A DNA stretch of 64,000 nt from an uncultured Chloroflexia bacterium (GTDB lineage: Bacteria > Chloroflexota > Limnocylindria > Limnocylindrales > CSP1-4): the NCBI GenBank assembly GCA_963743855.1, contig CAVURK010000009.1, positions 257,956 to 321,955 on the forward strand, given 5' to 3'. A program made the translations under genes and the position numbers. This document shows positions 15,141 through 59,458 of this stretch, one piece after another. Each line of letters opens with the position of its first letter. The stretch's first letter is position 1. Under the pieces are notes generated by a model that was not told where the DNA came from, searched no databases, and saw only the letters and a program-made list of their open reading frames with translations.

Positions 15141-15166
15141 CCTCGAGCGCGCAGGAGGAGGACGCG

Positions 15167-15958: not shown

Positions 15959-15967
15959 CGCGGCCCG

Positions 15968-16768: not shown

Positions 16769-16776
16769 CCCTCGCC

Positions 16777-16805: not shown

Positions 16806-16808
16806 GCG

Positions 16809-16832
16809 CCCCTAACAAGCGTTAGTTAGGGG
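16809..16832 (+). promoter_or_regulatory. Candidate PaaR (TetR) operator palindrome
   Basis: The sequence is CCCCTAACAAGCGTTAGTTAGGGG, with core CTAAC-AAGC-GTTAG at 16812-16825. It sits just downstream of the putative -10, 12 nt before the ATG of the TetR gene. Confidence 0.4.
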
Positions 16833-16843
16833 CATCGTCAGGC

Positions 16844-21219: not shown

Positions 21220-21249
21220 CCGCGGCCGACACCCCCCTACAATCGAGTC

Positions 21250-22475
<1,226 letters not shown>

Positions 22476-37365: not shown

Positions 37366-37366
37366 C

Positions 37367-39428: not shown

Positions 39429-40976
39429 ATGGCGGTCCCGGACCTCGAACACCCCACGGTGCGGCGCGGCCGGGCCGCGCGCCAGACCGAGCGACTGGCA
39501 CGTCACATGGACACGCTGCCCTTCCTGACGAGGAAGCTGCCGCCGGTCGAAGTCATCGGGGTCGGCGGTCTCGAGCAGATCGAGGCCAACGCCGACACGC
39601 TCCTCGAGCAGGTCGGCATCGAGATCGTCAACTTCCCGGAGGCGACCGAGATCTTCCGCGGCGCCGGCGCGGATGTCGACGGCCAACGGGTCCGCTTCCC
39701 GCGCGGGATGTGCCGCTCCCTGGTCCAGGCCACGGCCCCCCGGATCTTCACCCAGCTCGCCCGCAACCCGGCGCGGAGCGTGGAGATCGGCGACCCGTAC
39801 ATGGTCCTCGTCCCGACCTATGGCTCGCCGTTCATCCACAACCTCGACGAGGGCCGCCGCTACGCGACGATCGAGGACTTCCGCAACTTCGTGAAGCTGA
39901 CGTACACGAGCCTGACCCTCCACCACGGCGGCGGGACGCTGTGCGAGCCCGTCGACCTGCCGGTCAACAAGCGCCATTTCGAGATGGTCTACAGCCACAT
40001 CCGCTACTCGGACCGGGCGTTCATGGGCTCGGTCACCCATCCGAGCCGAGCCCAGGACTCGGTCGAGATGGCGAGGATCGTGTTCGGGGCCGAGACCATG
40101 GAACGCGAGCACGTGATCATGGGCCTGGCCAACGCCAACTCACCGATGTCGTGGGACTTCAACATGCTCGGCTCGGCCAAGGTCTACGCCGAGAACAACC
40201 AGATCATGCTGATCACGCCGTTCATCCTCGGTGGCGCGATGGCCCCGGTGACGGTCGCGGCCCAGGCCACCCAGACGCTCGCCGAGGCACTCGCCGGGAT
40301 GGCGTTCTGCCAGATCGTCCGGCCTGGTGCGCCGGTCATCTTCGGGTCGTTCGCGTCCTCGATGTCGATGCAGTCGGGTGCCCCGACGTTCGGGACCCCC
40401 GAGCCGCAGCTGGTCCTGTTCGTGCTCGCCGCCCTCGCCCGCCGGCTCGGCGTCCCGTTCCGGAGCGGTGGCAACTTCACGGCATCCAAGCTGCCCGACT
40501 ACCAGGCCGCCTACGAGAGCGCCATCAGCTACATGGCCACGATGCAGGCGGGGGTCAACTTCAACCTCCACACCGCGGGCTGGCTCGAGGGCGGGCTGGC
40601 GATCGGCTACGAGAAGTTCATCCTCGACGAGGACCAGGCATCGATGACCGGCGCCTACGTCGGCGGCGTCGACCTGACCGACAACGGCTACGCCCTCGAC
40701 GCGATGCTGGCGGGCGGCCCCGGCCAGCATTTTCTGGGTTCGCCGCACACGCTGGCCAACTTCGAGAACGCCTTCTGGCGCTCCGAGATCTCCAACAACG
40801 ACAGCTTCGAGCAGTGGGAGATCGACGGCGGGCTCGATGCCGCCCAGCGGGCGAACGTCCGCTGGAAGCGCCGGCTCGCCGAGTACGAGATGCCGCCGCT
40901 CGACGAGGGGATCCACGAGGAGCTCCTCGACTGGCTGGGGCGGCGCAGGGCGAGCTTCCCCGATTCGGACGTCTAG
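39429..40976 (+). CDS. MttB-superfamily (trimethylamine methyltransferase family) protein without pyrrolysine: a putative quaternary-amine methyltransferase
   Basis: Intact 515-aa ORF with no in-frame TAG. Family blocks: ITPFILGGAMAPVT, RPGAPVIFGSFASSMSMQSGAPTFGTPE, AAYES and HTAGWLEGGLAIGYEKFILD. GAGGAG lies 5 nt before the ATG. Confidence 0.9.
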   Translation: MAVPDLEHPTVRRGRAARQTERLARHMDTLPFLTRKLPPVEVIGVGGLEQIEANADTLLEQVGIEIVNFPEATEIFRGAGADVDGQRVRFPRGMCRSLVQATAPRIFTQLARNPARSVEIGDPYMVLVPTYGSPFIHNLDEGRRYATIEDFRNFVKLTYTSLTLHHGGGTLCEPVDLPVNKRHFEMVYSHIRYSDRAFMGSVTHPSRAQDSVEMARIVFGAETMEREHVIMGLANANSPMSWDFNMLGSAKVYAENNQIMLITPFILGGAMAPVTVAAQATQTLAEALAGMAFCQIVRPGAPVIFGSFASSMSMQSGAPTFGTPEPQLVLFVLAALARRLGVPFRSGGNFTASKLPDYQAAYESAISYMATMQAGVNFNLHTAGWLEGGLAIGYEKFILDEDQASMTGAYVGGVDLTDNGYALDAMLAGGPGQHFLGSPHTLANFENAFWRSEISNNDSFEQWEIDGGLDAAQRANVRWKRRLAEYEMPPLDEGIHEELLDWLGRRRASFPDSDV

Positions 40977-41006: not shown

Positions 41007-43058
41007 ATGACCGCCGGCGATCCGCTGCTCCAGCCGTTCCAGCTGCGGCACCTCACGCTCCGCAACCGGATCATGAGCCCCAGCCATGAGCCGGCCTACG
41101 CCGAGGACGGCAAGCCCAAGCTCCGGTACCAGCTCTACCACGAGGAGAAGGCGAAGGGCGGCATCGCCCTGACGATGTTCGGTGGGTCCACGAACGTGGC
41201 GCCCGACTCGCCGCCGGTCTTCGGTCAGCTGTACGCGGGGGACGACGACATCATCCCGTGGTTCCGCCAGATGGCGGACCGGATGCATGCCCACGGCACG
41301 GCCACCATGGTCCAGCTGACCCATCTCGGGCGGAGGACCGTGGCAGACGATGGCGACTGGCTGCCGACGATCTCGGCGTCATCCGTCCGCGAGCCTGCCC
41401 ACCGGAGCTTTCCCAAGGAGATGGAGGAAGGCGACATCCGGCGCGTCGTCCGCTCCTTCGGAGCGGCGGCCCGTCGCTGCAAGGAGGGCGGCCTCGACGG
41501 CCTCGAGCTGGAGGCCTACGGCCACCTGATCGACCAGTTCTGGTCGCCTCTCGTCAATGCGCGGACGGACCGGTACGGCGGCTCGCTCGAGAACCGGATG
41601 CGCTTCTCCATCGAGGTGCTCGAAGCAGTCCGCAGGGAAGTCGGCGACGAGTTCATCGTCGGCATCCGGATGAGCGGAGCGGAGGACCTGCCGGGCGGCC
41701 TGACCGAGTCCGACTGTCTCGCGATCGCGACGGCCCTTTCGCGGACCGGGATGATCGACTTCATCAACGTCATCAAGGGTTCGATCGCGACCGACGAGGC
41801 GCTGTCCCACGTCATCCCGGGGCTCGGGACGCCGCTCGGGCCGGGCCTCGAGCTGGCCGGACGGTTCCGCGAGCGTCTCGACCTGCCGATCTTCCACGCC
41901 GCCCGGATCGCGGACGTCGCGACCGCTCGATACGCCATCGCCGAGGGGCTGGTGGACATGATCGGGATGATGCGAGCGCACATGGCCGACCCGCACATCG
42001 TCCGGAAGCTGGAGGCAGGGGAGGCGGACCGGATCCGGCCGTGCGTCGGGGCGTCGTACTGCCTCAACCGGATCTACGTCGGTCTCGACGGCCTGTGCAT
42101 CCACAACGTCGCGACCGGGCGCGAGGAGACCGTCCCGCAGCTCACGGTCCCGAGCACGGGTCCGCGCCGGACGGTCGTCGTCGTGGGCGCGGGGGCCGCC
42201 GGCCTCGAGGCCGCCCGGGTCGCGGCCGAGCGCGGCCATCGGGTCATCCTGGTCGAGGCGGCCTCGGATCCGGGCGGGCAGATCCGCCTCGCAGCGCGGG
42301 CGACTCCGAGGCACGCGGATCTCATCGGGATCGTCGACTGGCTCGTCGCGGAATGCCGGCATGCTGGAGTCGAGATTCGCTTCGACACCGTCGCCGACGT
42401 GGCCGACATTCTCGCCCTCGACCCGGACGTCGTGATCGTCGCGACCGGCGGAGTGCCACGGATGCCCGCCCTGACCGAGGGCGAGGACCTGGTCGTGAGC
42501 ACCTGGGACGTCATCGGCGGGGCGGTGACGCCGTCACGTGGCGAGGTCCTGGTGTTCGACGACCACGGCGCCGAGGCAGCGCTGTCGTGCGCCGAGCGGA
42601 TGGCCTCCTCGGGTTCGACGGTCGAGATCGTGACCCCCGACCGCCATGTCGGGCTCGAAGTGACCGGGACCGACTACCCGGCCTACCTCGCCGCGTTCTA
42701 CGCCGCGGGCGTCCGGCTGACCACCGATCACCGGGTGGTCGCCGTGCGCCGGACCGCGGACCGCCGCCTCGAGGTCGACCTGCAGAGCGATTACACCTCA
42801 ACGACGACGCATCGCGTGGTCGACCAGGTCGTCGTCGAGCACGGGACCGTGCCGAACAGCGAGCTCTACCTCGGCCTGCGTCCCGGGTCGTCGAACGGCG
42901 GCGAGCTCGACCTCGACGCGTATCTCGCCGGTCGGCCGCAGACGCTCATGGTCGACGACGCGGGCACTTACCAGCTGTTCCGGATCGGTGACGCAGTCGC
43001 GAGCCGGAACATCCACGCCGCGATGTACGAGGCACGACGCCTCGCGATGGCGCTGTGA
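41007..43058 (+). CDS. DgcA/StcD-like FMN+FAD flavoprotein (N-methyl amino acid demethylase family)
   Basis: Intact 683 aa. The OYE domain contains KGGIALTMFGG and VQLTHLGR. Also present: RPCVGASYCLNRIYVGLDGLCIHN and VVVVGAGAAGLEAARVAAERGH. The length and architecture match StcD/DgcA-type demethylases. Confidence 0.85.
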   Translation: MTAGDPLLQPFQLRHLTLRNRIMSPSHEPAYAEDGKPKLRYQLYHEEKAKGGIALTMFGGSTNVAPDSPPVFGQLYAGDDDIIPWFRQMADRMHAHGTATMVQLTHLGRRTVADDGDWLPTISASSVREPAHRSFPKEMEEGDIRRVVRSFGAAARRCKEGGLDGLELEAYGHLIDQFWSPLVNARTDRYGGSLENRMRFSIEVLEAVRREVGDEFIVGIRMSGAEDLPGGLTESDCLAIATALSRTGMIDFINVIKGSIATDEALSHVIPGLGTPLGPGLELAGRFRERLDLPIFHAARIADVATARYAIAEGLVDMIGMMRAHMADPHIVRKLEAGEADRIRPCVGASYCLNRIYVGLDGLCIHNVATGREETVPQLTVPSTGPRRTVVVVGAGAAGLEAARVAAERGHRVILVEAASDPGGQIRLAARATPRHADLIGIVDWLVAECRHAGVEIRFDTVADVADILALDPDVVIVATGGVPRMPALTEGEDLVVSTWDVIGGAVTPSRGEVLVFDDHGAEAALSCAERMASSGSTVEIVTPDRHVGLEVTGTDYPAYLAAFYAAGVRLTTDHRVVAVRRTADRRLEVDLQSDYTSTTTHRVVDQVVVEHGTVPNSELYLGLRPGSSNGGELDLDAYLAGRPQTLMVDDAGTYQLFRIGDAVASRNIHAAMYEARRLAMAL

Positions 43059-43721
43059 CTACCGGAACGAGATGACGAGCAGGACCAGCGAGAGCGCCAG
43101 AAGGCAGGCGGCCAGCACGGCGGGCAGGACGATCCGGATCGTCAACGATCGCAATCGACTGCCCCCGAAACGCATCCGGTAGTCGGCGTCGAGGGCGAGC
43201 ATGTCCGCCATCGAGCGGATCGGCCGCGGGTCACCGTGGACCGACCGCAGTCGCATCGATCCGGCTCTGTGCGCGTCGACTGCATCGGCGATCGTGGTCG
43301 GGACGATCCGCACCTGGAGACGTGACTGGTCCGTCGGACTCCCGATGGGATGGATGGTGCCGAGCCACATGCCGTCCTCCCAGGCCGAATAGATCCCGGT
43401 CAGGGGAACGCCACCCAGGCCGCCGGCAAGGATCGCGTACGACTCTGCGTCGTCGGCAGCCATGATCCATGCAAAGCGTTCCCCGACAGGAAGATCCAGG
43501 CTGGTCTCACCCAGCTCCCGATAGCCCGCCTCGGTGAGCAGCGCCTGACGATCGCGGATCCCGGCGGGCGCTGCCGGTGCGCGACCCGTCGCGTCGCGCT
43601 GGCGGCGACGCCCGGTGCCTGCGTAGATCTGCCAGCTGCGCACCGCACCCGGACCGAGCCTGAGAAGGAGGATGCCCGACACGATCGCAAGCAACAGAGC
43701 CACGATCCGTTCGATCGGCAT
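43059..43721 (-). CDS. Hypothetical membrane protein (N- and C-terminal TM helices)
   Basis: Intact ORF with TM segments IVALLLAIVSGILLL and IVLPAVLAACLLALSLVLLVI. Its stop abuts the convergent flavoprotein stop. Confidence 0.5.
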   Translation of the reverse strand: MPIERIVALLLAIVSGILLLRLGPGAVRSWQIYAGTGRRRQRDATGRAPAAPAGIRDRQALLTEAGYRELGETSLDLPVGERFAWIMAADDAESYAILAGGLGGVPLTGIYSAWEDGMWLGTIHPIGSPTDQSRLQVRIVPTTIADAVDAHRAGSMRLRSVHGDPRPIRSMADMLALDADYRMRFGGSRLRSLTIRIVLPAVLAACLLALSLVLLVISFR

Positions 43722-43745
43722 GCACCGAATCCTCCTCAGCGCCGG

Positions 43746-44438
43746 TCAGGCGACGGGCCGCTCGTAGATCGCGAGCTGCCAGATCAACGTCGTGCGGTGC
43801 ATCCGTTTCACGAGGCCATGCGCCGCGAGGATGTCATCGACGTCGACAGTGCGATGCACGTAGACGCGGAAGGGTGAACGGACGATGCGGAACCTGGCGT
43901 TCAAGAGCGTGGTGCCGAGCCGGCCGAACCACGAGTCGCGAGGATAGATGAGGCCGAATCGCCGGCGCGCGAGGGTCGCCGAACGACCGACCAGCGACGC
44001 CATGTCCGCGTAACAGCAGACGACGCGATCGAGCGCGACGAGGTCCGCCGTCTGGATCTCGTCTGCAAGCGCGACGAAGTCGCCGGTGACGTATCGGACA
44101 CGATCGCCGTGGCCCTGCGCCTCCGCTTCCTCGCGCGCTACGGCGATGTAGGCACGAGACGCATCGACATCGACTGCGGACGCTGCTCCCGCCAGCAACA
44201 GTCCGAGGTGGACCGCACCGACGCCGGCGCCGATGTCGAGCACGGTATTCCCGTCGACGCCGCCAGCAGCGAGCCCATCGATCAACGCCCTCGTCAGACC
44301 CATCGGGCCATTCTCGCGGTAGGCGCGAAGCTGCCTCGCGGCGTGGCGGTCGTCGAACTGATGGTCGAGCGGGGAGTCGCCGGGCGAGCAGCAATCCATC
44401 TCAACGATCGTAGCAGCAGGTCGGCTGCGGCCGACCAC
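43746..44438 (-). CDS. Class I SAM-dependent methyltransferase
   Basis: Motif I VLDIGAGVGAV and post-I VDVDAS. The start could be GTG 44438 or ATG 44399. Confidence 0.7.
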   Translation of the reverse strand: MVGRSRPAATIVEMDCCSPGDSPLDHQFDDRHAARQLRAYRENGPMGLTRALIDGLAAGGVDGNTVLDIGAGVGAVHLGLLLAGAASAVDVDASRAYIAVAREEAEAQGHGDRVRYVTGDFVALADEIQTADLVALDRVVCCYADMASLVGRSATLARRRFGLIYPRDSWFGRLGTTLLNARFRIVRSPFRVYVHRTVDVDDILAAHGLVKRMHRTTLIWQLAIYERPVA

Positions 44439-44447
44439 GCAACCTCG

Positions 44448-46553
44448 TCAGTCCGGCACGAACTCCGGGTCGGCGAGCGCTGTCGGTTCGTCGGGCCGGG
44501 GCGGCGGTGCCTTGCGCTGGAGGACGCGCAGCTCCTCGAGCGGGATATGGCAGCTCATCAGGTGGCCCGGCTCGACCTCGACCAGCGGCGGCTCGGTCAC
44601 CTCGCACAGGCCGCGGATCACGCGTGGGCAGCGGGTGTTGAAGACGCACCCGCTCGGCGGATTGGCCGGGCTCGGGATCTCTCCCTCGAGGATGATCCGC
44701 TTGCGGTCCTCGCCGTCCACGTTCGGGACCGCGGACAGCAGGGCTTCGGTGTACGGGTGGTTCGGGCCGCGGAAGACGGTCTCGGAGTCGCCGACCTCCA
44801 TGATCCGGCCGAGGTAGAGGACCGCGATCCGGTCGGCGAGGTAGCGCACCACGCCGAGGTCGTGCGAGATCAGCAGGTAGCTCGTCTTGCTCTTGGCCTG
44901 CAGCTCCGAGAGCAGGTTGAGGATCGCGGCCTGGACCGAGACATCGAGCGCGCTGGTCGGTTCGTCGGCGACGACGATCCGCGGGTCGCCCGCGAACGCC
45001 CGGGCGATCGCCACGCGCTGCTTGAGCCCGCCCGACAGCTGGCGCGGCTTGAGGTCGAGATGACGCTGCGTGAGCCGCAGGTCGGCAGCGAGCTTGTCGA
45101 CCCGTTCGTTGACCGCCTTGCCCTTGAGCCCGGTCAGCTTGCTGACCGACCGCTGGAGGATGTGGCGCGCGGTCCAGCCGCGATTGAGCGCCGAATCCGG
45201 GTTCTGGAAGACCATCTGGATCGAGCGCTTGTCGGCCGTCGGCCGGCCCGCCGATCGGGCCGCGAGGGCGTGCTCATCGAGCTCGAGACTGCCCCCGACG
45301 TCCGGGCTCTCGATGCCGAGGATCGTCTTGGCCAAGGTCGACTTGCCGGAACCCGATTCGCCGACCAGCCCGAGGGTCTCGCCATCGAACAGCTTGAGAT
45401 CGACCTTGACCAGGGCGGGGATATCGTGGCCGCTCTGGTGGAAGGTCTTCGACACGTGGTCGACAGTCAGGGACAGATCGCCGTGGACGGTGTCCGTGCC
45501 GACGATCGGCGGCGCCTCGACGAGCTGCCCGAGGCGGTCGCGATGATGGCAGCGCGTCCAGCGACCGCCCCCGACGTCGACGATCGGCGGGATCACGGTC
45601 CGGCACAGCTCGTCGGCCAGCGGGCAGCGATCGACGAAGACGCAGGTCGGCAGGTCCGTCCCGATCTGCGGCAGGTTGCCCGGGATCGTCGACAGCGCGC
45701 GCTCGGTCTTGCGGATGCCGCGACGCGGCAGCGAGCGCAGGAGCCCGAGGGTGTACGGATGCTCGGGATGTTCGAAGACCGCGGCCGCATCGCCCTCCTC
45801 GACGATCTTGCCCGCGTACATGACCCCGACCCGGTCGCACATCGTGCGGATGACGCCGAGGTTGTGGGCGATCAGCAGGACGGCCGCGTTGGTCTCCGCC
45901 TGGAGCGAGCGGACGAGGTCGAGCACGCTCGCCTCGACGGTCGCGTCGAGACCGGTCGTCGGCTCGTCGAGGACCAGCAGCTTCGGGTCCGAGGCGAGGG
46001 CGATGGCGATGACGACGCGCTGCTGCATCCCGCCCGACAGCTGGTGCGGATAGCGCTGCGCGACAGCCTCCGGGTCGGCGATCTGGACGCGGCTGAGGGC
46101 CTTGAGCGCGTTCGCCTCGGCCTCTTTCTTGCCCTGGCCCAGGACGGTGAACGCCTCGACGACCTGCGGCCCGATCTTGGTCGACGGGTTGAGCGCCGCG
46201 CCCGGGTCCTGGTAGACCATCGAAGCGTGATGGATCCGGAACTGGCGGACGGCCTCGTCGTTCATCTTCGTGATGTCGTTGCCGTCGACGAGGATCCGCC
46301 CGCCGGTGATGACGCCGTTACGCGGCAGGTACCGGACGGCGGCGTATGCGGTGGTCGACTTGCCGCAGCCGGACTCGCCGACCAGCCCGTACGACTCGCC
46401 GGGCCGGACCTCGAACGAGACGCCGCGCAGGACCGGGCGCCGGATGCCGCGGACGACATAGGCCAGCGACAGGTCCTCGACCTTGAGTGCGGCGGGTGGT
46501 GTCGGCGGCTCCGAGGGGGGCGGCCCGCCGGTCGGCGCGATCGTGGTCGTCAT
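44448..46553 (-). CDS. Fused double ATP-binding subunit of an Opp/Dpp-type ABC transporter (DppD-DppF fusion)
   Basis: Two Walker A motifs (GESGCGKST; GESGSGKST), two LSGG signatures (LSGGMQQR; LSGGLKQR) and C-terminal oligopeptide-type extensions (HPYT...). ATGA overlap with the permease gene. Confidence 0.9.
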   Translation of the reverse strand: MTTTIAPTGGPPPSEPPTPPAALKVEDLSLAYVVRGIRRPVLRGVSFEVRPGESYGLVGESGCGKSTTAYAAVRYLPRNGVITGGRILVDGNDITKMNDEAVRQFRIHHASMVYQDPGAALNPSTKIGPQVVEAFTVLGQGKKEAEANALKALSRVQIADPEAVAQRYPHQLSGGMQQRVVIAIALASDPKLLVLDEPTTGLDATVEASVLDLVRSLQAETNAAVLLIAHNLGVIRTMCDRVGVMYAGKIVEEGDAAAVFEHPEHPYTLGLLRSLPRRGIRKTERALSTIPGNLPQIGTDLPTCVFVDRCPLADELCRTVIPPIVDVGGGRWTRCHHRDRLGQLVEAPPIVGTDTVHGDLSLTVDHVSKTFHQSGHDIPALVKVDLKLFDGETLGLVGESGSGKSTLAKTILGIESPDVGGSLELDEHALAARSAGRPTADKRSIQMVFQNPDSALNRGWTARHILQRSVSKLTGLKGKAVNERVDKLAADLRLTQRHLDLKPRQLSGGLKQRVAIARAFAGDPRIVVADEPTSALDVSVQAAILNLLSELQAKSKTSYLLISHDLGVVRYLADRIAVLYLGRIMEVGDSETVFRGPNHPYTEALLSAVPNVDGEDRKRIILEGEIPSPANPPSGCVFNTRCPRVIRGLCEVTEPPLVEVEPGHLMSCHIPLEELRVLQRKAPPPRPDEPTALADPEFVPD

Positions 46554-47440
46554 TCGTTGAGCACCGATTGCAGGCTGTCGGCGATGAGGTTGACCGCGAT
46601 GACCGTGCTGGCGATGGCCAGCGCCGGGAAGAGGGTCGGCCACCAGATCCCGGAGATCATGTTCGTGTATTCCTGGCTGACGCTGAGGCCCCAGTCGGGC
46701 GATGGCGGCTGGAGGCCGACGCCGAGGAACGACAGGGTGGCGACGGTGAAGATCGCGTAGCCGAAGCGGACCGTCATCTCGACGACCGTCGGCCCAAGGA
46801 CATTCGGGAAGATCTCGCGCGACAGGATGAACAAGCCCGACTCGCCGCGCAGCTTGGCCGCGGTCACGTAGTCGAGCTCACGCTCGGACAGGACCGCCGA
46901 ACGCACCGTCCGGGCGACGATCGGCGTGAACAGGATCCCGACGACCGCCACCACGACGAGTGGCGAGGTGCCGAGGACGACGAGCGTCAGCAGGGCGACG
47001 AGGACGACCGGCAAGGCCAGGAAGGCCTCGATGATCCGGCCCAGGACGTCATCGACCTTCCCGCGGTAGTAGCCCATCGTCAGCCCGAGGAGGGTTCCGC
47101 ACGTCACGCCGAGGAGTGCCGCCAGCGGAGCCACGATCAGCACGTCCCGCGAGCCGACCATCACTCGCGACAGGACGTCGCGCCCGATCCGGTCCGTTCC
47201 CATCCAATGCTCCGGGCTCGGCGGCAGGTGTCCCGTGGTGAAGTAGTTGAACGGGTCGTACGGCGTGATCCGCTGGCCGAGGACCGCGCAGATGATCCAG
47301 CCGATGATGATGATGTTGCCGATGATGAACGCCGGGCGGTGGAGCAGGAGCCGGATGGTCTCGCGGCGCGCCTGCGACCGCTCCGAGACGGGTGCTGCCA
47401 CGGTGGGTCCGAGCGGGGTCGGCTCGACGATGACGTCCAT
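46550..47440 (-). CDS. Opp/Dpp-type ABC transporter permease (DppC-like)
   Basis: Starts at the internal ATG (MDVIVEP...), overlapping the upstream stop as TGATG. Contains the HWMGTDRIGRDVLSR motif and six TM segments. Confidence 0.9.
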   Translation of the reverse strand: MDVIVEPTPLGPTVAAPVSERSQARRETIRLLLHRPAFIIGNIIIIGWIICAVLGQRITPYDPFNYFTTGHLPPSPEHWMGTDRIGRDVLSRVMVGSRDVLIVAPLAALLGVTCGTLLGLTMGYYRGKVDDVLGRIIEAFLALPVVLVALLTLVVLGTSPLVVVAVVGILFTPIVARTVRSAVLSERELDYVTAAKLRGESGLFILSREIFPNVLGPTVVEMTVRFGYAIFTVATLSFLGVGLQPPSPDWGLSVSQEYTNMISGIWWPTLFPALAIASTVIAVNLIADSLQSVLNE

Positions 47441-48393
47441 CAGCCTTGGGTATCGAGCCGGATCCGCGGGTTCATCCATGCCGTGATCAGGTCGGCCGTC
47501 AGGGTCGCCAGCATGTAGACGACCCCGATGACGATGACGCCCGCGGTGAGCATCGGCAGGTCCTTGTGCTGGGCGGCCTGCAACATCGTCGCGCCCATCC
47601 CGTTGTAGTTGAAGATCTTCTCGACCGCGATGATCCCGCCGAACAGGTAGCCGATCTGGACGGCGATGACCGCGATCGTCGGGACCAGCGCGTTACGCAG
47701 GACGTGGCGCCGCATCGTCTGGCTCGTGGTCAGCCCTTTCATCGTGGCCGTCCGCGTGTAGTCGGACTGGAGCGCCTCGATCGCGCCGGCGCGGGTCATC
47801 CGGGCGATGTAGCCGAAGTAGACGATCGCCATCGCGATCGCCGGCATCAGCAGGTAGCGGACCTGGGTCGGGATGTCCGCGTTCGGCGGCGGCGTGGCGA
47901 GCACGGGTAACCAGCCGAGCTGGACGCCGACGACCACGACGAGGATCGTGCCTGTGATGAACTCCGGGATCGACGACGTGGTGACCCCGAGCAGAACGAT
48001 CGCCCGATCCGCCTTGCGGTCACGCCGTCTCGCGGCATAGAGCCCGGCGATGATGCTGAGCGGGATGGTGATGAGCAGGGCCAGGAAGGCCAGCTTGGCC
48101 GATCTCCCGACCGCGCCCAGGATCTGCGGCAGGACATCCTGCTGCGAGGCAAACGATTCGCCGAAATCGAGCGTGACCAGGCGGCGCATCTGGTCGACGT
48201 ACTGGACGATGAGCGGCCGGTCCGTTCCGAGCCGCTGGTTCAGGGCGTCGACGCTCTCCTGCGGCGCGAACGGGCCCAGGATCGTCCTGCCGACGTTGGA
48301 CGGCAGCATGTTCGTGATGACGAAGACGATCGAGGCGAGCAACCACAGTGTGACCAGGGACAGGGCCAACCTGCGCGCAAAGTAGCGGGTCAT
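47440..48393 (-). CDS. Opp/Dpp-type ABC transporter permease (DppB-like)
   Basis: Begins MTRYFARRLALSLVTLWLLASIVFVI. The EAA-type loop is DYTRTATMKGLTTSQTMRRHVLRNAL. Confidence 0.9.
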   Translation of the reverse strand: MTRYFARRLALSLVTLWLLASIVFVITNMLPSNVGRTILGPFAPQESVDALNQRLGTDRPLIVQYVDQMRRLVTLDFGESFASQQDVLPQILGAVGRSAKLAFLALLITIPLSIIAGLYAARRRDRKADRAIVLLGVTTSSIPEFITGTILVVVVGVQLGWLPVLATPPPNADIPTQVRYLLMPAIAMAIVYFGYIARMTRAGAIEALQSDYTRTATMKGLTTSQTMRRHVLRNALVPTIAVIAVQIGYLFGGIIAVEKIFNYNGMGATMLQAAQHKDLPMLTAGVIVIGVVYMLATLTADLITAWMNPRIRLDTQG

Positions 48394-48425
48394 GCCCCCA
48401 CCAAAGCGGGCCGCGCGACGTCAGG

Positions 48426-48451
48426 CATGGGGCGCTGGCTGGCGCCCCATG
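48426..48451 (-). other. Intercistronic 10-bp perfect stem-loop between the SBP and permease genes
   Basis: CATGGGGCGC-tggctg-GCGCCCCATG lies in the 68-nt gap downstream of the SBP stop (48462). Confidence 0.5.
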
Positions 48452-48461
48452 CCGTGGTCGT

Positions 48462-50199
48462 TCAGGCTGTCTTGGACGCGGACGACAGGAACATCTGCCC
48501 GAGCGCGGACGTGTAGACGCCGGTGAACGTCTTCGCGTTGCCGGACAGGTAGTTGTAGTAAGTAGGCGATCCCGGCCGGGACGTCTTCGTTCATGATCGG
48601 CTCGATCTTGGCGCAGGCCGCCTTCTGGGCGTCGACGCCGACCGCCGTCTGGAACTCCGTGAACGCCGCGTCGAACGCGGGCGAGGAGTACTGCGACGCG
48701 TTCCAGACGCCATGCGTCTTGAACGCCGAGTTGAGGAAGACGTCCGGGGTCGGCCGGTGGCCGTAGTCGACGATGCCGAACTCGGCGGCTCCGGAGCACG
48801 GCGGATCCTTGGGGGTGTCCGGGCACCACTGCGCCCCGTAGAAGGCGCCGTTGTCCATGCCCTGGGGAGTGATCGTGATCCCGGCCGGTGCGGCCTGGCT
48901 CTGGAGCAGGACGGCGAGGTCCGGGATCTCGTTGAGCTGGCCGTACTGGAGCGTCACCTTGAGGTCCGTCACGCCGGCCGCCGACAGGAGCGACTTCGCC
49001 ATGTCGATGTTCTGGGCACGCTGCGGGACCGTGTCGCTGAAGTACGGGTAGAACGGGGCGATGACGTGGTCGTTGGCGAGGACCGCCTTGCCCTTGAACA
49101 GCTGCGTGATCAGGGCCGGGCGATCGATCGACAGGGCGAAGGCCTGGCGCACGCGCTTGTCGGCGAACGCGCCCTTGTCGCAGCGCATCCAGATCTGGCG
49201 GTGGTTGGTGGTCGGCGTCTCGACGACCGTGAAGTTCGCGTCGGTGAAGAGAGCCGCGCCCGACAGGACGTCGAACTGGACGAGGGCGTCGATCTGGCCG
49301 CCCTGGTAGGCGGTGACCATCGCGCCGGTGTCGTCGAAGAACGTGAATTCCACGCCGTCGAGCGGGGTCTTGCCGCCCCACCAGGCGTCGTTCCGGACGA
49401 ACGAGGCGCCCGATGCGACGTCGTACTTGGTGAGCTTGAACGGACCGGTCCCAGCGGGCACCTTGTCAAGGGTCGTCCCGGCCACGTACGCCTTCGGCGT
49501 GATGAGCGATTGGGCGTTGAAGACCGACACGAGGTACGGGAAGTTGCCGTTCGCGCTGACCAGCGTGAAGGTGACCGTGTTCGCGTCCGTGGCGACCGCC
49601 GATCCGGAGGCGATGACGCCCTTCAGGCCCGAGTTCCCGGCCGTGACCAGGCGCTCCATCGTGGCCACCACGTCGTCGGCGGAGAACGGCGTCCCGTCGT
49701 GCCAGGTCACGCCCTGGCGGAGCTTGAAGGTCCAGACCTTATTGGTGCTGTCCGGTGTCCAGGAGAGCGCCAGCCCGGGCGCGATGTCCGAGGCGTTCGC
49801 GCTCAGCGTGCACAGGAACTCGAGCGACTGGGCGGTGATCCCGTAGCTCGACAGGTCGACCATGGCGACCGGGTCGAGAGCGCCCTTGGGGCGCTGGGCA
49901 GCGACCCGGATCGTGCCGCCCGTGATCCCGCCGCCCGAGGCGGCTGCGCTCGCGCTTGCCGCCGCCGACCCGCCGGCCGAGGCCGGGGGCGCACTGGCCG
50001 CGACCGTCGCGCTCGGGCTCGAGGAGGTGCTGCTGCAGGCCGCGATGACCATGCTGACCGACGCCATCGACAGCCCGACGACGGTCGCCCGCTTGATGAA
50101 TTCGCGGCGGCCGATCCGGCCGCTGGCGAAGGCCTCGACCGTGTCGAGTTGGAGTGGCGTTGTCTCTCGGCGAACCTTGTCCAGCTGGGAATAGTCCAT
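48462..50199 (-). pseudogene. Family-5 (Opp/Dpp/Nik-type) substrate-binding lipoprotein with Tat-like signal, frameshifted at ~48560
   Basis: A GGAGGA Shine-Dalgarno sequence precedes the start. The signal is RREFIKRATVVGLSMASVSMVIAAC (twin-Arg plus lipobox). The C-terminus YNYLSGNAKTFTGVYTSALGQMFLSSASKTA-stop lies in the +1 frame. The span is 3n+1. Confidence 0.85.
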
Positions 50200-50320
50200 C
50201 GTCCTAGTTCCTCCGGGCGAGACCACCTGACGGCGACGAGCACCTTTGACGGCATCGATCGCGAATGCACCACGCCGCCCGGACACCGATTCCTCCAGCC
50301 GGGCAACGGGATGTCTCGGA

Positions 50321-50349
50321 ACGGTACTGGCGGCCCGTTCGACTGTCAA
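50321..50349 (-). promoter_or_regulatory. Candidate promoter for the Opp/Dpp-type operon
   Basis: The minus strand reads TTGACA (50349-50344), a 17-nt spacer, then TACCGT (50326-50321). The -35 is embedded in the inverted repeat GTTCG...CGAAC. Confidence 0.3.
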
Positions 50350-50367
50350 CGAACCCCCGGGTTGCGC

Positions 50368-50382
50368 CTGAGTGATACTCAG
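50368..50382 (+). promoter_or_regulatory. Inverted repeat CTGAGT-gat-ACTCAG immediately upstream of the enolase-family gene
   Basis: Perfect 6-bp arms with a 3-nt spacer, ending 3 nt before GTG 50386. It is a possible operator or translational element. Confidence 0.3.
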
Positions 50383-50385
50383 CAC

Positions 50386-51495
50386 GTGCGCATCACCGGC
50401 ATCCGGCTCGATCGGCTCGTGGTCCCGCTCGACCCCGCCTTCCCGGCCGCCTGGGACCCGGTCCCGCGGCGCTCGTTCGGGGCGACGGTCGTCAGGGTCG
50501 AGACCGACGAGGGCGTCGTCGGGATCGGTTCGGGCGACACGATGGACGGCTTCGAGGCCTACCAGCACCTGTTCGTCGGCGGCGATCCACTGGCCATCGC
50601 CCGGCACGTCCGCGCGCTCGAGACGATCGATTTCCACGCCGGCCGCTACTGGCCGCTCGAGGTCGCCCTGTGGGACATCCTCGGCCAGGTCGCCGGGCTG
50701 CCGGTCGCGACGCTTTTCGGCGGAGCGAGCGAAGGGATCGCTGCGTATGCCTCGTGCGGGATGCTCCTGCCGCCGACCGCTCGCGCGGAGTCTGCGCTCC
50801 GCCTCCGCGCCGAAGGGTTCGGCGCGCTCAAGATCCGGATCGATCCGCGACAGCTCGAGGACGGGCTCGCCGCGGTCGCGGCCACGCGCGATGCCGTCGG
50901 CGACTCGATGGCGATCATGGTCGACCTCAACCAGGGCTGGCGGATGGCCGGCGACACGACCCGCTCGCTCGACCCGGTCGCTGCCCGTGAGATCGCCGTC
51001 CGGCTCGCCGAGTTCGGCGTCCTGTGGGTCGAGGAGCCGCTGGCCGGCACGGACCTGCAGGGGCTGGCGGCGTTGCGGGCGTCCGCGCCGGGCATCCGGA
51101 TCGCCGGCGGCGAGATGACCCGGACATTCGCCGAGCTCGTCGCGGCGGTCGAGGCGGACGCGTTCGACGTCCACCAGCCCGACGTCGTCCTGGCCGCAGG
51201 GATGCTCCGGACGCGGACCGTCGCCGAGCTCGCGCTTGCGCGGAACCGCTGGTTCACGCCGCACACGTGGACCAATGGCATCGGGCTGCTGGCCAACCTG
51301 CATGTCGCGGCCGGTGTCGGTGGCGGGCCGTTCATCGAGTTCCCCTACGATCCGCCCGGCTGGACCCCGGAACGTCGCGACTTCATGCTCGCGGAGCCGG
51401 TCCGGCCCGGACCCGACGGGATCCTGCGCGTGCCGTCGGCGCCGGGCCTCGGGATCGTGCTCGACGAGGCCGCCGTGCGGCGGTACGCGGCGTGA
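50386..51495 (+). CDS. Enolase-superfamily enzyme (mandelate racemase/muconate-lactonizing family; epimerase, racemase or dehydratase)
   Basis: Starts at GTG: MRITGIRLDRLVVPL. Contains WDILGQVAGLPVATLFGG, LKIRI, VDLNQGW (metal Asp), WVEEP (Glu) and HQPDV. It is divergent from the ABC importer. Confidence 0.85.
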   Translation: MRITGIRLDRLVVPLDPAFPAAWDPVPRRSFGATVVRVETDEGVVGIGSGDTMDGFEAYQHLFVGGDPLAIARHVRALETIDFHAGRYWPLEVALWDILGQVAGLPVATLFGGASEGIAAYASCGMLLPPTARAESALRLRAEGFGALKIRIDPRQLEDGLAAVAATRDAVGDSMAIMVDLNQGWRMAGDTTRSLDPVAAREIAVRLAEFGVLWVEEPLAGTDLQGLAALRASAPGIRIAGGEMTRTFAELVAAVEADAFDVHQPDVVLAAGMLRTRTVAELALARNRWFTPHTWTNGIGLLANLHVAAGVGGGPFIEFPYDPPGWTPERRDFMLAEPVRPGPDGILRVPSAPGLGIVLDEAAVRRYAA

Positions 51496-53019
51496 CGAGC
51501 GGGGCGACCGGCGGAGCCGCCAAGCCGACGGCCGCCGACTGGCTCGCGCGCGCGGCGGCCGTCGACCCGCGGACCGAGCTGTTCATCGATGGGGCGTTCG
51601 TGCCTGCCGCGTCGGGCCGGACCTTCGACGACATCGCCGGGCGCGACGGCTCGCGGATCGCGCAGGTCGCCGAGGGCGACACGGAGGACGTGGAGCGGGC
51701 GGTCGCGGCGGCCCGTCGTTCGTTCGACGACAGACGCTGGAGCGACCAGCCGCCGATGGCGCGCAAGAAGGTCCTGCTCAGGCTCGCCGAGCTCGTCCGC
51801 GAGCATCTCGACGAGCTCGCGCTGCTCGAGTCGCTCGATGTCGGCAAGCCGATCCGCGACGCCTTGAACGTCGACATCCCGAGCGCCGCGACGACCCTCC
51901 AGTGGTACGCCGAGACGATCGACAAGGCGTACGGCGAGATCGGCCCGACCGGACCCGATGCCCTGTCGCTCGTGACCCGCGAGCCGATCGGCGTGGTCGC
52001 CGCGATCGTGCCCTGGAACTACCCGATGATCATCACCGCCTGGAAGCTGGGCGCCGCGCTCGCGACGGGCAATTCGGTCGTGCTCAAGCCTGCCAGCCAG
52101 TCGCCGCTGACCGCGCTCCGTCTTGCCGAGCTGGCCGCCGAGGCCGGTCTCCCCGACGGCGTGCTCAACGTCGTCACCGGTCCGGGCGCCGTGATCGGCG
52201 ACGCCCTGGCCCGTCACCCGGGCGTCGACAAGATCGCCTTCACCGGGTCCACCGAGGTCGGCAAGTCGCTCCTCCGCGCCGTCGGCGGATCGGACGTCAA
52301 GGCGATCTCGCTCGAGCTCGGCGGCAAGAGCCCGCAGGTCGTCCTGGCCGATGTCGGCGACCTCGAGGCGGCGGCCTCGGCGATCGGCTGGGGGATCTTC
52401 TACAACAGCGGCCAGACCTGCAACGCGGGCTCACGGCTCGTCGTCCACAGCTCGGTCCGCGAGGAGCTCGTCGAGCGGATCGCGGCGCTCGGCCGAAAGC
52501 TCGCCCCGGCGAGCCGCTCGATCCGCGGACACGCCTCGGCTCGATCGTGGACGACCGCCAGATGGCCAAGGTCCTCGGCTACGTGGACCTCGGGCGGCAG
52601 GAGGGCGCGACCGGTCGTCTCAGGCGGCGAGCGGGTGCGCGAGGACTCGGGCGGCTATTTCATCGAGCCGACGATCCTCGACGGCGTCGCGAACACCATG
52701 CGGGTCGCGCGCGAGGAGATCTTCGGGCCGGTCCTGACCGTCACCGAGTTCGACGATGAGGACGAGGCGATCGCCATCGCCAACGACACGCCCTACGGCC
52801 TCGCGGCCGGCGTGTGGACCCGCGACGTGAACCGGGCCCACCGGCTGTCGCGACGCGATCCGGGCCGGGATCGTCTATGTGAACACGTTCGACACCGCCG
52901 ACATCACCGTGCCGTTCGGTGGCTACAAGCAGTCGGGCTTCGGGCGCGACAAGAGCCTGCACGCGCTGGACGGCTACACCCAGCTCAAGACGACCTGGCT
53001 CGACCTGTCCGGTCGCTGA
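51492..53019 (+). pseudogene. NAD(P)+ aldehyde dehydrogenase, three frameshifts (~52505, ~52613, ~52853)
   Basis: GTGA overlap with the enolase-family gene. Contains VPWNYPM, FTGSTEVG, ELGGKSP and GQTCNAGSR. GEPLDPRTRLGSIVDDRQMAKVLGYV lies in the -1 frame. The sequence then returns to the first frame (YFIEPTIL...EEIFGPV) and finishes in +1 (AIRAGIVYVNTF...PFGGYKQSGFGRD). Confidence 0.85.
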
Positions 53020-56989: not shown

Positions 56990-59458
56990 ATGAAGTCTTC
57001 GGCCCAGGTCGTGGTCATCGGCGGAGGCGTCGTCGGTGCCAGCGTGCTCTACCACCTGACGAAGGCCGGCTGGACCGACGTCATGCTGCTCGAGCGCCGC
57101 GAGCTGACGGCCGGATCGACGTGGCATGCCGCGGGCGGGATGCACACCCTCAACGGCGACCCGAACGTCTCCAAGCTCCAGCAGTACACGATCAAGCTGT
57201 ACGAGGAGATCGAGCGGATCTCCGGCCAGGACTGCTCGATCCACCTGCCCGGCGGGCTGATGCTGGCCGACACCGAGGTCCGGATGGACTTCCTGCGGAT
57301 GGCCGTCGCGCGCGGCCGCTATCTCGGGATGGACCTCGAGCTGATCAGCGCCCGGGAGGCAGCGGACCTCTTTCCGTTGATGGATCCGCAGTACTTCGTC
57401 GGGGCGCTGTACGACCCGGTCGAGGGCCACGTGGACCCGACCGGTGTCACGCGCGCGTACGTGAAGTGTGCCCAGCTGGCCGGCGCGGAGGTCCACCAGC
57501 ACACGCCGGTCGTCGGGCTGTCGCAACGCGCCGACGGGACATGGGACGTGCGAGTGGAGTCGGGCGACGTCATCCACGCGGAGCACGTCGTCAACGCCGG
57601 CGGACTGTGGGCGCGCGAGGTCGGGCGGATGGTCGGCATCGAGCTGCCGGTCCTCGCCATGGAGCACATCTACCTCATCACGCAGGACATGCCCGAGGTG
57701 GCCGCCCACGTCGCCTCCACCGGCCACGAGATGCCGATGGCGCTCGACTTCGGCGGCGAGATCTACATCCGCCAGGAGGGCGGGGCCATGCTGCTCGGCA
57801 CGTACGAGCAGGCCTGCGTCCCGTGGTCGCCGCGCGAGACGCCGTGGGACTTCGGGTCGCAGCTCCTCAAGCCGGACATGGATCGGATCACGCCGGAGCT
57901 CGAGGTCGCCTTCCGGCACTACCCGGCGATGGGTACGACCGGGATCCGCCGCATCGTCAACGGGCCGTTCACGTTCTCACCTGATGGGAATCCGCTCGTC
58001 GGCCCGGTTCGCGGCCTGCGCGGCTTCTGGGTCGCCTGCGGGGTGATGGCCGGGCTGTCGCAGGGCGGCGGCGTCGGGCTCGCACTGGCGACGTGGATGA
58101 CCGCCGGCGATCACGGCGACTCGGGGATGGATGTCTGGGCGATGGATGTCGCGCGCTACGGCGACTACGCGACGCTCGCCTATACGAACGCCAAGGTCCA
58201 GGAGAACTACCGGCGTCGGTTCCGGATCACCTTCCCGAACGAGGAGCTGCCGGGCGCCCGGCCGCTGCTCACGACGCCGATCTATGACCGGCTGACCGCG
58301 GCCAACGCGGTCTGGGGCGCGACCTTCGGCCTCGAGCATGCGCTCTGGTTCCAGGAGCCTGGTCTCGAGCCCAAGGAGGACGTGACGTTCCGGCGGTCGA
58401 ACGCGTGGTCGCAGGTCGCAGCGGAGGTCGCGGCGGTCCGCGAGCGGGTCGGCATGACCGAGATCTCCAACTACGCCAAGTACCGGGTGACCGGTCCGGG
58501 CGCCGAGGCATGGCTCTCGTCGCTGCTGACCGCGCGGATGCCGGCCCCCGGCCGGATCACGCTGACCGCGATGCTCAATGACGCCGGTCGGATCGTCGGC
58601 GAGTTCACGGTCGCGCGTGCATCCGAGGCCGATGAGTACTTCCTGTTCGGGTCACTGCCCGCCGAGGTCCACCACTCGCGCTGGTTCCGCCACCATCTGC
58701 CGGCCGACGGCTCGGTGCGATTCGAGGTCCTGGGGCTTGGCCTGGTCGGGCTGTCGGTGGCCGGGCCGCGATCGCGCGACGTGCTCCAGGCGGTCGCACC
58801 CGACCTGGACCTGTCGACCCAGGCGTTCCCGTTCATGACCTTCCGCCAGGTCGACCTGGGCATGACGCCCGTCCACCTGGCCCGCATCAACTACGCCGGC
58901 GACCTCGGCTACGAGCTGTGGGTGAGCCCCGAATACCAGCGCGAGCTGTTCGATCGGATCGTTGCCGCGGGCGAGCCCCACGGCCTTCGGCTCTTCGGCA
59001 TGCGGGCGCTGATGTCGCTCCGCCTCGAGAAGTCGTATGGGACGTGGTTCCGCGAATACCGGCCGATCTACACGCCGCTCGAAGGCGGGATCCCGCGCTA
59101 CCTGAAGCTCGACCACGAATTCATCGGGCGCGCGGCGCACGAGGCGGAGGCAGCGGCAGGTGGCCCCGCCCGGCGGCTCGTCGCGTTCGTCGTCGACCCG
59201 GACCCGGACGACCCGGCCGATGTCATCGGCGACGAGCCGATCTGGCATGACGAGGCGGTCGTCGGCTGGGTGACCTCCGGCGGGTACGGGCATCACGTCA
59301 AGCAGTCGATCGCGCTGGGATACGTGCCGACCGAGCTCGCCACCCCGGACGGTCCCGGCGGGAGCGGCTTCGAGATCGAGATCATCGGGCGGCGACGTCC
59401 GGCGCGGCTCCAGCCCGAGCCGTTGTTCGACCCGGGTGGTCTCCGGATGCGCGCGTGA
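56990..59458 (+). CDS. Dimethylglycine/sarcosine dehydrogenase-family enzyme (FAD oxidoreductase fused to a GcvT folate-binding domain)
   Basis: Intact 822 aa. Contains VVVIGGGVVGASVLYHL and GSTWHAAGG (covalent-FAD His context). The C-terminal aminomethyltransferase-like domain contains YAGDLGYELW and LRLEKSY. Confidence 0.9.
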   Translation: MKSSAQVVVIGGGVVGASVLYHLTKAGWTDVMLLERRELTAGSTWHAAGGMHTLNGDPNVSKLQQYTIKLYEEIERISGQDCSIHLPGGLMLADTEVRMDFLRMAVARGRYLGMDLELISAREAADLFPLMDPQYFVGALYDPVEGHVDPTGVTRAYVKCAQLAGAEVHQHTPVVGLSQRADGTWDVRVESGDVIHAEHVVNAGGLWAREVGRMVGIELPVLAMEHIYLITQDMPEVAAHVASTGHEMPMALDFGGEIYIRQEGGAMLLGTYEQACVPWSPRETPWDFGSQLLKPDMDRITPELEVAFRHYPAMGTTGIRRIVNGPFTFSPDGNPLVGPVRGLRGFWVACGVMAGLSQGGGVGLALATWMTAGDHGDSGMDVWAMDVARYGDYATLAYTNAKVQENYRRRFRITFPNEELPGARPLLTTPIYDRLTAANAVWGATFGLEHALWFQEPGLEPKEDVTFRRSNAWSQVAAEVAAVRERVGMTEISNYAKYRVTGPGAEAWLSSLLTARMPAPGRITLTAMLNDAGRIVGEFTVARASEADEYFLFGSLPAEVHHSRWFRHHLPADGSVRFEVLGLGLVGLSVAGPRSRDVLQAVAPDLDLSTQAFPFMTFRQVDLGMTPVHLARINYAGDLGYELWVSPEYQRELFDRIVAAGEPHGLRLFGMRALMSLRLEKSYGTWFREYRPIYTPLEGGIPRYLKLDHEFIGRAAHEAEAAAGGPARRLVAFVVDPDPDDPADVIGDEPIWHDEAVVGWVTSGGYGHHVKQSIALGYVPTELATPDGPGGSGFEIEIIGRRRPARLQPEPLFDPGGLRMRA

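Follow-up and report, generated by a model that had tools for sequence, protein, structure and literature searches.

An enolase-superfamily gene coupled to an aldehyde dehydrogenase gene, divergent from an Opp-type importer and beside betaine-demethylation genes, in a soil Chloroflexota bacterium

Several described systems resemble parts of a locus in a soil Chloroflexota bacterium, where an uptake system, an enolase-superfamily enzyme and an aldehyde dehydrogenase (ALDH) are encoded beside betaine-demethylation genes. The locus occupies positions 44448 to 53019 of the 64,000-nucleotide stretch of DNA analyzed here (the window; G+C content ~70%). First, the GbsB/GbsA pathway of Bacillus subtilis converts choline to glycine betaine with an iron alcohol dehydrogenase and a betaine-aldehyde dehydrogenase, and has no enolase-family or Fae (formaldehyde-activating enzyme) component. 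Second, the enolase superfamily includes the mandelate racemase subgroup, which we take to be defined by an Asp-His pair and a K-x-K motif; in mandelate racemase itself, a D-x-N motif binds the alpha-hydroxyl. Third, in the HpbD pathway of Pelagibaca bermudensis and Paracoccus denitrificans, an enolase-superfamily enzyme is likewise found beside a betaine importer and N-demethylases, and the P. denitrificans enzyme uses Lys164 and Lys266 as bases and Asp194, Glu219 and Asp242 as ligands (PMC3950512). Fourth, aerobic MttB-type demethylation of glycine betaine is established and requires a corrinoid protein (PMC12478193).

How does the present locus compare? We propose, with about even confidence, that it serves to take up a small N-methylated compound and break it down by way of beta-elimination; this compound would most likely be a quaternary-ammonium carboxylate or its parent amino alcohol. 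The Opp-type ATP-binding cassette (ABC) system would import the compound. The enolase-superfamily enzyme would hold the substrate carboxylate on Mg2+ via D180/E216/E243, the His293-Asp266 pair would take the alpha-proton, and a group would be expelled from the beta-carbon. Such a reaction would be that of a dehydratase, lyase or cycloisomerase rather than a two-base epimerization. The coupled ALDH would oxidize an amino-aldehyde of the same route, and the adjoining MttB, OYE-type, dimethylglycine-dehydrogenase-like and sarcosine-oxidase-like genes would serve to remove methyl groups. What the sequences show directly is how the genes are laid out, which catalytic residues are kept, which genes stay linked and that one importer type can replace another; from these we infer the substrate class, the order of the steps and the elimination chemistry.

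A preliminary description of this DNA had reported a leftward importer, a rightward enolase-superfamily gene with a GTGA-coupled ALDH gene, and a 186-bp spacer between the two sets. By Pfam scan and direct reading, all of these parts are in place:

44448..46643, minus strand: fused OppD/OppF-type double ATPase (Pfam ABC_tran in two stretches, 198 bits; oligo_HPY in two stretches, 120 bits)
46550..47479, minus strand: OppC-like permease (BPD_transp_1, 99 bits; OppC_N, 21 bits)
47440..48393, minus strand: OppB-like permease (BPD_transp_1, 133 bits; BPD_transp_1_N, 36 bits), with synteny kept in relatives
48421..50199, minus strand: family-5 solute-binding lipoprotein with a Tat signal (SBP_bac_5, 248 bits)
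50200..50385, no strand: divergent control region of 186 bp between the binding-protein and enolase genes
50386..51495, plus strand: enolase-superfamily gene with a GTG start (MR_MLE_C, PF13378, 165 bits; MR_MLE_N, PF02746, 23.6 bits against a cut-off of 22)
51492..53019, plus strand: ALDH gene with a GTG start (Aldedh, 462 bits, profile positions 2-414 only)

The enolase gene has no frame break. The ALDH GTG at 51492 overlaps the enolase TGA (GTGA), an arrangement of translational coupling, and an equivalent four-base overlap is present in a relative (locus L013). The leftward genes make up an Opp/Dpp-type importer, with a family-5 binding protein, two BPD_transp_1 permeases and ATPases with an oligo_HPY tail; the ATPase also matches NCBIfam dipeptide/oligopeptide ATP-binding models. 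While the ATPase open reading frame (ORF) itself is open to 46643, the true start is probably the ATG at position 46553, which overlaps the stop codon of the permease gene (ATGA). The OppC-like permease is 80-85% identical in syntenic relatives. The translated N-terminus of the binding protein shows the twin-arginine motif GRREFIK and the lipobox IAAC, and its ATG at 50199 is preceded by a ribosome-binding site, GGAGGA.

The enolase member has the two domains of the MR/MLE type, an N-terminal capping domain and a C-terminal barrel, and its AlphaFold2 model has a predicted local distance difference test score (pLDDT) of 90.7. Its residue pattern is K149-I-R151, D180-x-N182, E216, E243, D266, H293 and E318, with K149, R151, D180, N182, E216, E243, D266, H293 and E318 invariant in 12 orthologues of 43-86% identity. 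D180, E216 and E243, at the ends of strands 3, 4 and 5, align with the metal ligands of PDB entries 4ggb, 3sjn and 5olc, and alignments with 4ggb and 5olc place K149-I-R151 opposite K-x-K, QPD266 opposite QPD, and PH293 opposite PH. The strand-7 His and strand-6 Asp of the mandelate racemase subgroup are therefore both present; the K-x-K of that subgroup, at the end of strand 2, is K-x-R in all 12 orthologues. Beyond these, a 50%-identity library holds 316 representatives at E 1e-30 or better, and 67 of the best 150 listed are full length (340-450 amino acids). The His-Asp pair is kept in 51 of the 67, with K-x-R in 57, K-x-K in 3, and all seven catalytic positions in 45. The capping-loop residues W23, D24, R28 and H84 are also common to 10 of them, and mark a narrower orthologous group.

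In the PDB, the proposed galactarolactone cycloisomerase 4ggb/4hpn ranks first (E 1.6e-31 over the full length, about 25-30% identity); next come 3sjn, the galactonate dehydratase entry 5olc, talarate/galactarate dehydratase and mandelate racemase. Foldseek, like the sequence search, returns mandelate-racemase-type neighbors, with a dipeptide epimerase only at rank 49; template modeling (TM) scores of 0.77-0.87 to all superfamily structures listed are too even for structure comparison to separate subgroups. The enolase member passes no NCBIfam curated equivalog model tried. Judged by its sequence, the enzyme belongs to an uncharacterized family with mandelate-racemase-subgroup anatomy and is not HpbD-like.

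This assignment bears on the preliminary description, which had read the locus by HpbD logic: a proline-betaine/hydroxyproline-betaine 2-epimerase, or a cis-3-hydroxyproline dehydratase, would open a betaine pathway ending at a semialdehyde dehydrogenase. There is some agreement with that scheme, since the neighbors of the family include betaine-type importers and demethylases, OCD/mu-crystallin genes adjoin it in some Chloroflexota, and the NCBIfam cis-3-hydroxy-L-proline dehydratase model (NF043002) aligns over its full length, if weakly (62.6 bits against a cut-off of 500). The active site does not fit. Where HpbD has its two lysine bases and D/E/D ligands, the present enzyme has K-x-R, Asp266/His293 and D/E/E, and no entry described as a proline-betaine/hydroxyproline-betaine epimerase is found among the best 60 of 86 PDB matches. 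Nor does the ALDH fit. An intact orthologue from L013 scores best with PuuC (NF007352; 608 bits against a cut-off of 850), and also matches betaine-aldehyde dehydrogenase (BADH; TIGR01804; 530.5 against 668.6) and alpha-ketoglutaric semialdehyde dehydrogenase (NF042993; 364.3 against 770). It reaches none of the three curated cut-offs and is a member of Pfam Aldedh only; in these sequence comparisons, the ALDH appears closest to the amino-aldehyde dehydrogenases PuuC and BADH. Hence, the order of epimerase first and semialdehyde dehydrogenase last is not supported, and we consider an HpbD-like pathway highly improbable.

The binding protein is similarly hard to place among curated families: DppA (74 bits against 1005), OppA (56.4 against 947) and NikA (113-156 against 393-600) are all missed, and there is no close PDB relative by sequence (best E 2.5e-27). 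These scores also count against the idea that the locus serves peptide salvage, with an ordinary di- or oligopeptide importer, a dipeptide epimerase and unrelated neighbors. The Opp/Dpp-type architecture is what such a locus would have, and both a Xaa-Pro-dipeptidase-like amidohydrolase gene in the window (59455-60696) and an M20 peptidase gene in one related locus would suit it. The preliminary description had named clustering of the enolase member with dipeptide epimerases as the outcome that would point this way. Instead, models for dipeptide (L-Ala-D/L-Glu) epimerases, NF041118 and NF011708, score 28.3 and 26.3 bits against cut-offs of 500 and 343, and an OpuAC-type importer stands at the same place in relatives. 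Peptide salvage is scarcely credible as an explanation.

Orthologues of the enolase member with 54-91% identity occur in Chloroflexota and Actinomycetota, including the abundant freshwater acI lineage. Within the genus, 28 of the 36 other genomes carry one, and in the sister family searched none of 24 does. Across the phylum, 48 of the 401 genomes sampled have an orthologue with E 1e-50 or better, a count that takes in the window's own genome and an unpublished genome (G262). Cultured carriers, by record title, are Actinomycetospora, Amycolatopsis echigonensis, Nonomuraea antimicrobica, Pseudonocardia and Kribbella. Twelve loci from the genus were hand-chosen for long contigs. The ALDH gene is next in 10 of these, and a second MttB gene and a dimethylglycine-dehydrogenase-like gene follow in 11; the Opp-type importer is present in six, each time with the first MttB gene. 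At one locus (L018), an OpuAC-type ABC importer and an IclR regulator occupy the place of the Opp importer. A further five (L014-L017 and L020) lack an importer at that position and carry IclR, which Pfam detected in L014 and tblastn in L015-L017 and L020. Elsewhere in the Chloroflexota, families whose enolase member is 64-68% identical have genes for the binding protein, enolase, ALDH and Fe alcohol dehydrogenase in that order, the first two only 10 bp apart. Opp permeases and an ATPase, an OCD/mu-crystallin gene and a histidine-ammonia-lyase-like gene surround the enolase gene there, and its demethylation neighbors are a BHMT-like methyltransferase gene, instead of MttB, and a dimethylglycine-dehydrogenase-like gene.

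A broader set was drawn from species-representative genomes as the best 80 of 598 related stretches, compared by tblastn with 37 query proteins. Neighbors were counted within 9 kb of the enolase gene, and the counts are lower bounds because many loci are short; they are not pooled with the earlier loci, some of which are the same places. At least 71 of the 80 loci have an ALDH or alcohol dehydrogenase, at least 42 have IclR and at least 29 have Fae. The binding protein is of the Opp type in at least 23 and of the OpuAC type in at least 21, with one or the other in at least 43. Thus, an OpuAC-type (betaine/choline-class) ABC importer, confirmed by Pfam in some cases, replaces the Opp-type one in relatives, and its binding proteins are kin of solved binders of betaine, choline, carnitine and ergothioneine in the PDB. 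Among the 36 loci with at least 72% identity to the window protein, MttB follows the enolase-ALDH pair in at least 27 and dimethylglycine-dehydrogenase-like genes do so in at least 23, and Fae is found in at least 1. The remaining 44 loci, from Actinomycetota, other Chloroflexota and a few further groups, fall below 72%; at least 38 of them have an alcohol dehydrogenase and at least 28 have Fae. Genes for the demethylation of betaine, dimethylglycine and sarcosine adjoin the enolase family in Chloroflexota only.

When ten binding proteins from distant loci were compared with the whole genome, the window's binding protein was by far the best match for nine (267-366 bits, next at most 108); the tenth query overran into the adjoining permease and was uninformative. 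Hence, this binding-protein subfamily has been co-inherited with the enolase gene across phyla. The recurrence of the subfamily with enolase and ALDH or alcohol dehydrogenase genes in two phyla places the arrangement far beyond chance. Two further ideas of the preliminary description, that importer, enolase and ALDH are one functional unit and that the unit is tied to methylated-amine/betaine metabolism, are supported by these orthologous binding proteins, the OpuAC swap and the frequent MttB and dimethylglycine-dehydrogenase-like neighbors.

By Pfam, the gene orders of more distant relatives add detail. In an acI genome, leftward Fe alcohol dehydrogenase and IclR genes face a rightward series of OpuAC-type ABC importer, Fae, enolase, ALDH and HIBADH-like genes. 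Gaiellaceae have Zn alcohol dehydrogenase, Fae and enolase genes in one direction, and Rubrobacterales have Fae, enolase, ALDH and Fe alcohol dehydrogenase genes. In Actinomycetospora, the enolase gene is followed by an Fe alcohol dehydrogenase gene and a membrane di-iron oxygenase-like gene. None of the Fe- and Zn-dependent alcohol dehydrogenases, OCD protein, lyase and BHMT-like protein of the relatives passed an NCBIfam equivalog. Could the locus instead be accessory, with enolase, Fae, alcohol dehydrogenases and ALDH treating aldehydes from oxidative N-demethylation rather than the carbon skeleton of the substrate? Fae lies immediately upstream of enolase in the acI, Gaiellaceae, Rubrobacterales and Nonomuraea loci, models of NDMA-dependent and of class III / S-(hydroxymethyl)mycothiol dehydrogenases give the adjoining Zn-dependent dehydrogenase its highest scores, and demethylating flavoenzymes such as those encoded nearby can release formaldehyde. 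We nevertheless regard such a role as quite improbable. No enolase-superfamily reaction on formaldehyde is known, the window's genome (64.8% complete) has no Fae match, and a dedicated importer and IclR co-inheritance better fit a substrate-specific pathway.

Two sets of genes seen at these loci are noted here in their own right. A protein of ~180-194 amino acids (L014:9425-9964, L028:2576-3160) is encoded beside IclR, divergent from the enolase gene, in 23 of the 80 loci; it has no match in the Pfam copy searched, and a protein atlas places it in PF27604 (PB2B2.08-like), with a weak ABM-monooxygenase-like fold. In cultured Pseudonocardiales, oxygenase-like genes adjoin the enolase-Fe alcohol dehydrogenase pair (L084:4752-6800; L100:12360-13799; L107:12453-13703; L112:12377-14719). 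Amycolatopsis has a flavin monooxygenase-like gene and Actinomycetospora a fatty-acid-desaturase/AlkB-like membrane oxygenase gene, L112 also having a ferredoxin-reductase-like gene. By their sequences, these oxygenase-like genes are candidate oxidative demethylases or hydroxylases.

An acid-sugar pathway is a more substantial alternative. Here, the enzyme would be a dehydratase or cycloisomerase of acid-sugar or sugar-lactone catabolism, the ALDH and dehydrogenases would act on its products, and the betaine neighbors would be incidental. Its best PDB and Foldseek matches agree with this, as do its top NCBIfam scores, which are those of talarate/galactarate (NF047820), arabinonate (NF040866) and galactonate (NF010624) dehydratases, and one data source names homologues D-galactarolactone cycloisomerase. 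However, the same curated models are missed widely (109.1 bits against 500, 99.1 against 650 and 95 against 311), and the importers, being of the Opp or OpuAC type, are not those usual for sugar acids. At the thresholds used, none of 132 scanned neighbor ORFs (65 + 67) matches a 2-keto-3-deoxy-acid aldolase, DHDPS-like protein or PfkB kinase. In addition, the ALDH is nearest to amino-aldehyde dehydrogenases, and Fae lies directly upstream in 28 of the 44 distant loci. Catabolism of acid sugars is possible, then, although we think it unlikely.

Several points weigh against the proposal that the locus handles an N-methylated compound by beta-elimination. First, among the matches listed, the closest solved and curated relatives of the enzyme are acid-sugar dehydratases and cycloisomerases, and the aligned D-x-N motif, which in mandelate racemase has its partner in an alpha-hydroxyl, is kept. 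Second, sugar-type genes neighbor the enolase gene in some relatives, with HIBADH-like genes in 10 of the 80 loci and GFO/IDH/MocA and xylose-isomerase-like barrel genes in L072. Third, Arg151 or the invariant His84 could act as a second base, which would permit epimerization. Fourth, any demethylation gene at all lies within 9 kb in only 2 of the 44 loci below 72% identity, and outside the window's lineage the betaine link consists solely of the OpuAC importers and Fae. Fifth, wherever the Opp-type importer occurs within the genus, the first MttB gene (MttB1) accompanies it, and many genomes have the enolase-ALDH pair and no such importer; because it is gained and lost with MttB1 while the pair stays, it may feed MttB1, in addition to or instead of the enolase enzyme. 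Finally, the ALDH and binding-protein genes are frame-broken in the present assembly.

A more specific form of the proposal is that the enzyme is the first enolase-superfamily C-N (onium) lyase for betaines, expelling trimethylamine from a beta-substituted acid. We put this forward as a speculative and decidedly unlikely case. An alcohol dehydrogenase and the ALDH would first convert the imported quaternary amino alcohol to the acid; the His-Asp pair would then take the alpha-proton, and a trimethylammonium or related group would leave the beta-carbon. Such a leaving group needs no acid catalyst, which would explain the loss of the second strand-2 lysine. Compounds like beta-alanine betaine or 3-trimethylammonio-lactate are candidate substrates. 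To our knowledge, no enzyme is known for the C-N-cleaving step of homocholine breakdown. Titles and abstract openings of the literature on homocholine, beta-alanine betaine and trimethylamine name no C-N-cleaving enzyme, and those of the listed matches on the enolase superfamily, betaines and genome neighborhoods include none on the present family. A search joining the enolase superfamily with MttB found nothing, and one joining formaldehyde-activating enzyme with mandelate racemase found nothing on topic by title and abstract.

The 186-bp spacer is conserved in patches. When 11 orthologous spacers are aligned, invariant or near-invariant blocks stand out from sequence that otherwise varies. 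Facing the importer on the minus strand is TTGACA (reverse complement of 50344-50349), then 17 nt, then TACCGT (reverse complement of 50321-50326). On the plus strand, GATACT at 50374-50379 lies 6 nt ahead of the enolase GTG. These promoter-like blocks are putative promoters, as judged from the alignment, and the closeness of GATACT to the enolase start suggests a leaderless message. A scan of the spacer for consensus promoters and terminators gave no sites, and its repeats are short two-copy matches only.

What do the frame breaks mean? Nucleotide alignments with three relatives agree that the ALDH gene lacks one base near 52507 and has one base too many near each of 52611 and 52856; an intact orthologue maps onto three frames of the window, and the window translation leaves frame twice. 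When the three indels are read through, the gene ends at 53019. The ALDH end given in the preliminary description is therefore right for the corrected gene and wrong for the gene as assembled, in which the frame runs to 53126. In the binding-protein gene, the last ~45 codons are shifted by a one-base insertion near 48559, and the conserved C-terminus lies in another frame, with a stop at about 48462. Further lone single-base indels are seen in the ABC1-kinase gene (54242, 54390 and 55032) and in the second MttB gene (~55651). These indels, each seen against two or three relatives, come to about one per 2 kb, a pattern typical of an unpolished long-read assembly. The source genome has 10 contigs totaling 3.28 Mb, and split enolase matches are also seen in several few-contig relatives. 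We think that the breaks are probably errors in a long-read metagenome-assembled genome (MAG), the alternative being real pseudogenes. In public sequencing runs, the best word share of 0.16 reflects relatives of the source organism only.

On both sides, the locus is flanked by genes of demethylation and others:

37289-39358, plus strand: OYE-type flavoenzyme, upstream of the first MttB gene
39429-40976: MttB, the first of two (MttB1; 610 bits to PDB 4yyc)
41007-43058, plus strand: second OYE-type enzyme, on the other side of the first MttB gene
43059-44438, minus strand: two genes between the OYE-type gene and the ATPase gene, encoding a 220-amino-acid protein and an S-adenosylmethionine (SAM)-dependent methyltransferase
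59455-60696: Xaa-Pro-dipeptidase-like amidohydrolase (430 bits against 500)

Both OYE-type proteins are OYE/FMN plus FAD/NAD(P)-binding flavoenzymes with the architecture of trimethylamine and histamine dehydrogenases. The gene pair at 43059-44438 has no counterpart in any related locus compared. The SAM-dependent methyltransferase weakly matches a corrinoid-protein-associated methyltransferase model, and the 220-amino-acid protein (43059-43721) falls only in unnamed clusters of the protein atlas. After the ALDH gene come an ORF, an ABC1 kinase gene, the second MttB gene, a dimethylglycine-dehydrogenase-like gene, the amidohydrolase gene and sarcosine-oxidase-like genes. Some 30-42 kb before the start of the window, the contig also encodes proteins with B12-binding domains (C9:215963-216304 and C9:227191-227373), which may serve the two MttB proteins as corrinoid partners. 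Farther away in the window, a second, intact ALDH gene (3448-5136, minus strand; Aldedh, 573 bits) shares ~66% nucleotide identity with an orthologue of the locus ALDH. Near it lie a short-chain dehydrogenase/reductase gene, a truncated glutamine-synthetase-like gene and an amino-acid permease gene (5971-6765 and 7557-8357, minus strand; 8221-10758, plus strand), and the region may encode a gamma-glutamyl-amine (Puu/GmaS-like) route. A phenylacetate-type cluster occupies 14252-22389 on the plus strand (enoyl-CoA hydratases, TetR, PaaA/PaaC-like, 3-hydroxyacyl-CoA dehydrogenase and thiolase); its frames look fused, again suggesting indel errors.

For the assignment of enzyme function, the enolase superfamily has been a classic test case, and the present locus offers a delimited family with fixed partners and no assignable reaction. 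Methylated amines are major osmolytes and sources of nitrogen and one-carbon units. The company of the family, with betaine-class importers, amino-aldehyde-type ALDH, Fae and demethylases, points to an undescribed step in their turnover. The family is spread across soil Chloroflexota, many Actinomycetota and freshwater acI, and its cultured carriers make the function directly testable.

Comparison with known systems places the locus between several of them. Like HpbD, the present enzyme is proposed to act by Mg2+-assisted removal of a proton next to a carboxylate. Against the D/E/D ligands and two lysines of HpbD stand Arg151, Asp266 and Glu243 here, placed by standard strand positions. The HpbD system has a Rieske demethylase, whereas here there is none, and MttB, OYE-type and dimethylglycine-dehydrogenase-like genes are found instead; the importer differs too, being of the Opp or OpuAC type, as does the ALDH, which is of the amino-aldehyde class. 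With the proposed galactarolactone cycloisomerase of Agrobacterium tumefaciens (4ggb/4hpn; also 5olc, 2pp0 and 3ozm), the enzyme shares its barrel, metal ligands and Asp-His pair, and beta-elimination is likely to be its common ground with the acid-sugar enzymes of the mandelate racemase subgroup. It departs from them in having Arg for the second strand-2 lysine and the family-specific W23, D24, R28 and H84, and its genomic company is entirely different. The flanking MttB genes, followed by dimethylglycine- and sarcosine-oxidizing genes, and the B12-binding proteins of the same contig recall MtgBCD; this likeness covers the neighbors only, as the MtgBCD route (PMC12478193) has no enolase-family enzyme, ALDH or Opp-type importer. 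GbsB/GbsA is resembled by the relatives, whose enolase gene is accompanied by an Fe-type alcohol dehydrogenase, ALDH, OpuAC-type importer and regulator. However, the curated GbsB model (251 bits against 550) is missed, as is that of BADH, and in the window there is no adjacent alcohol dehydrogenase gene.

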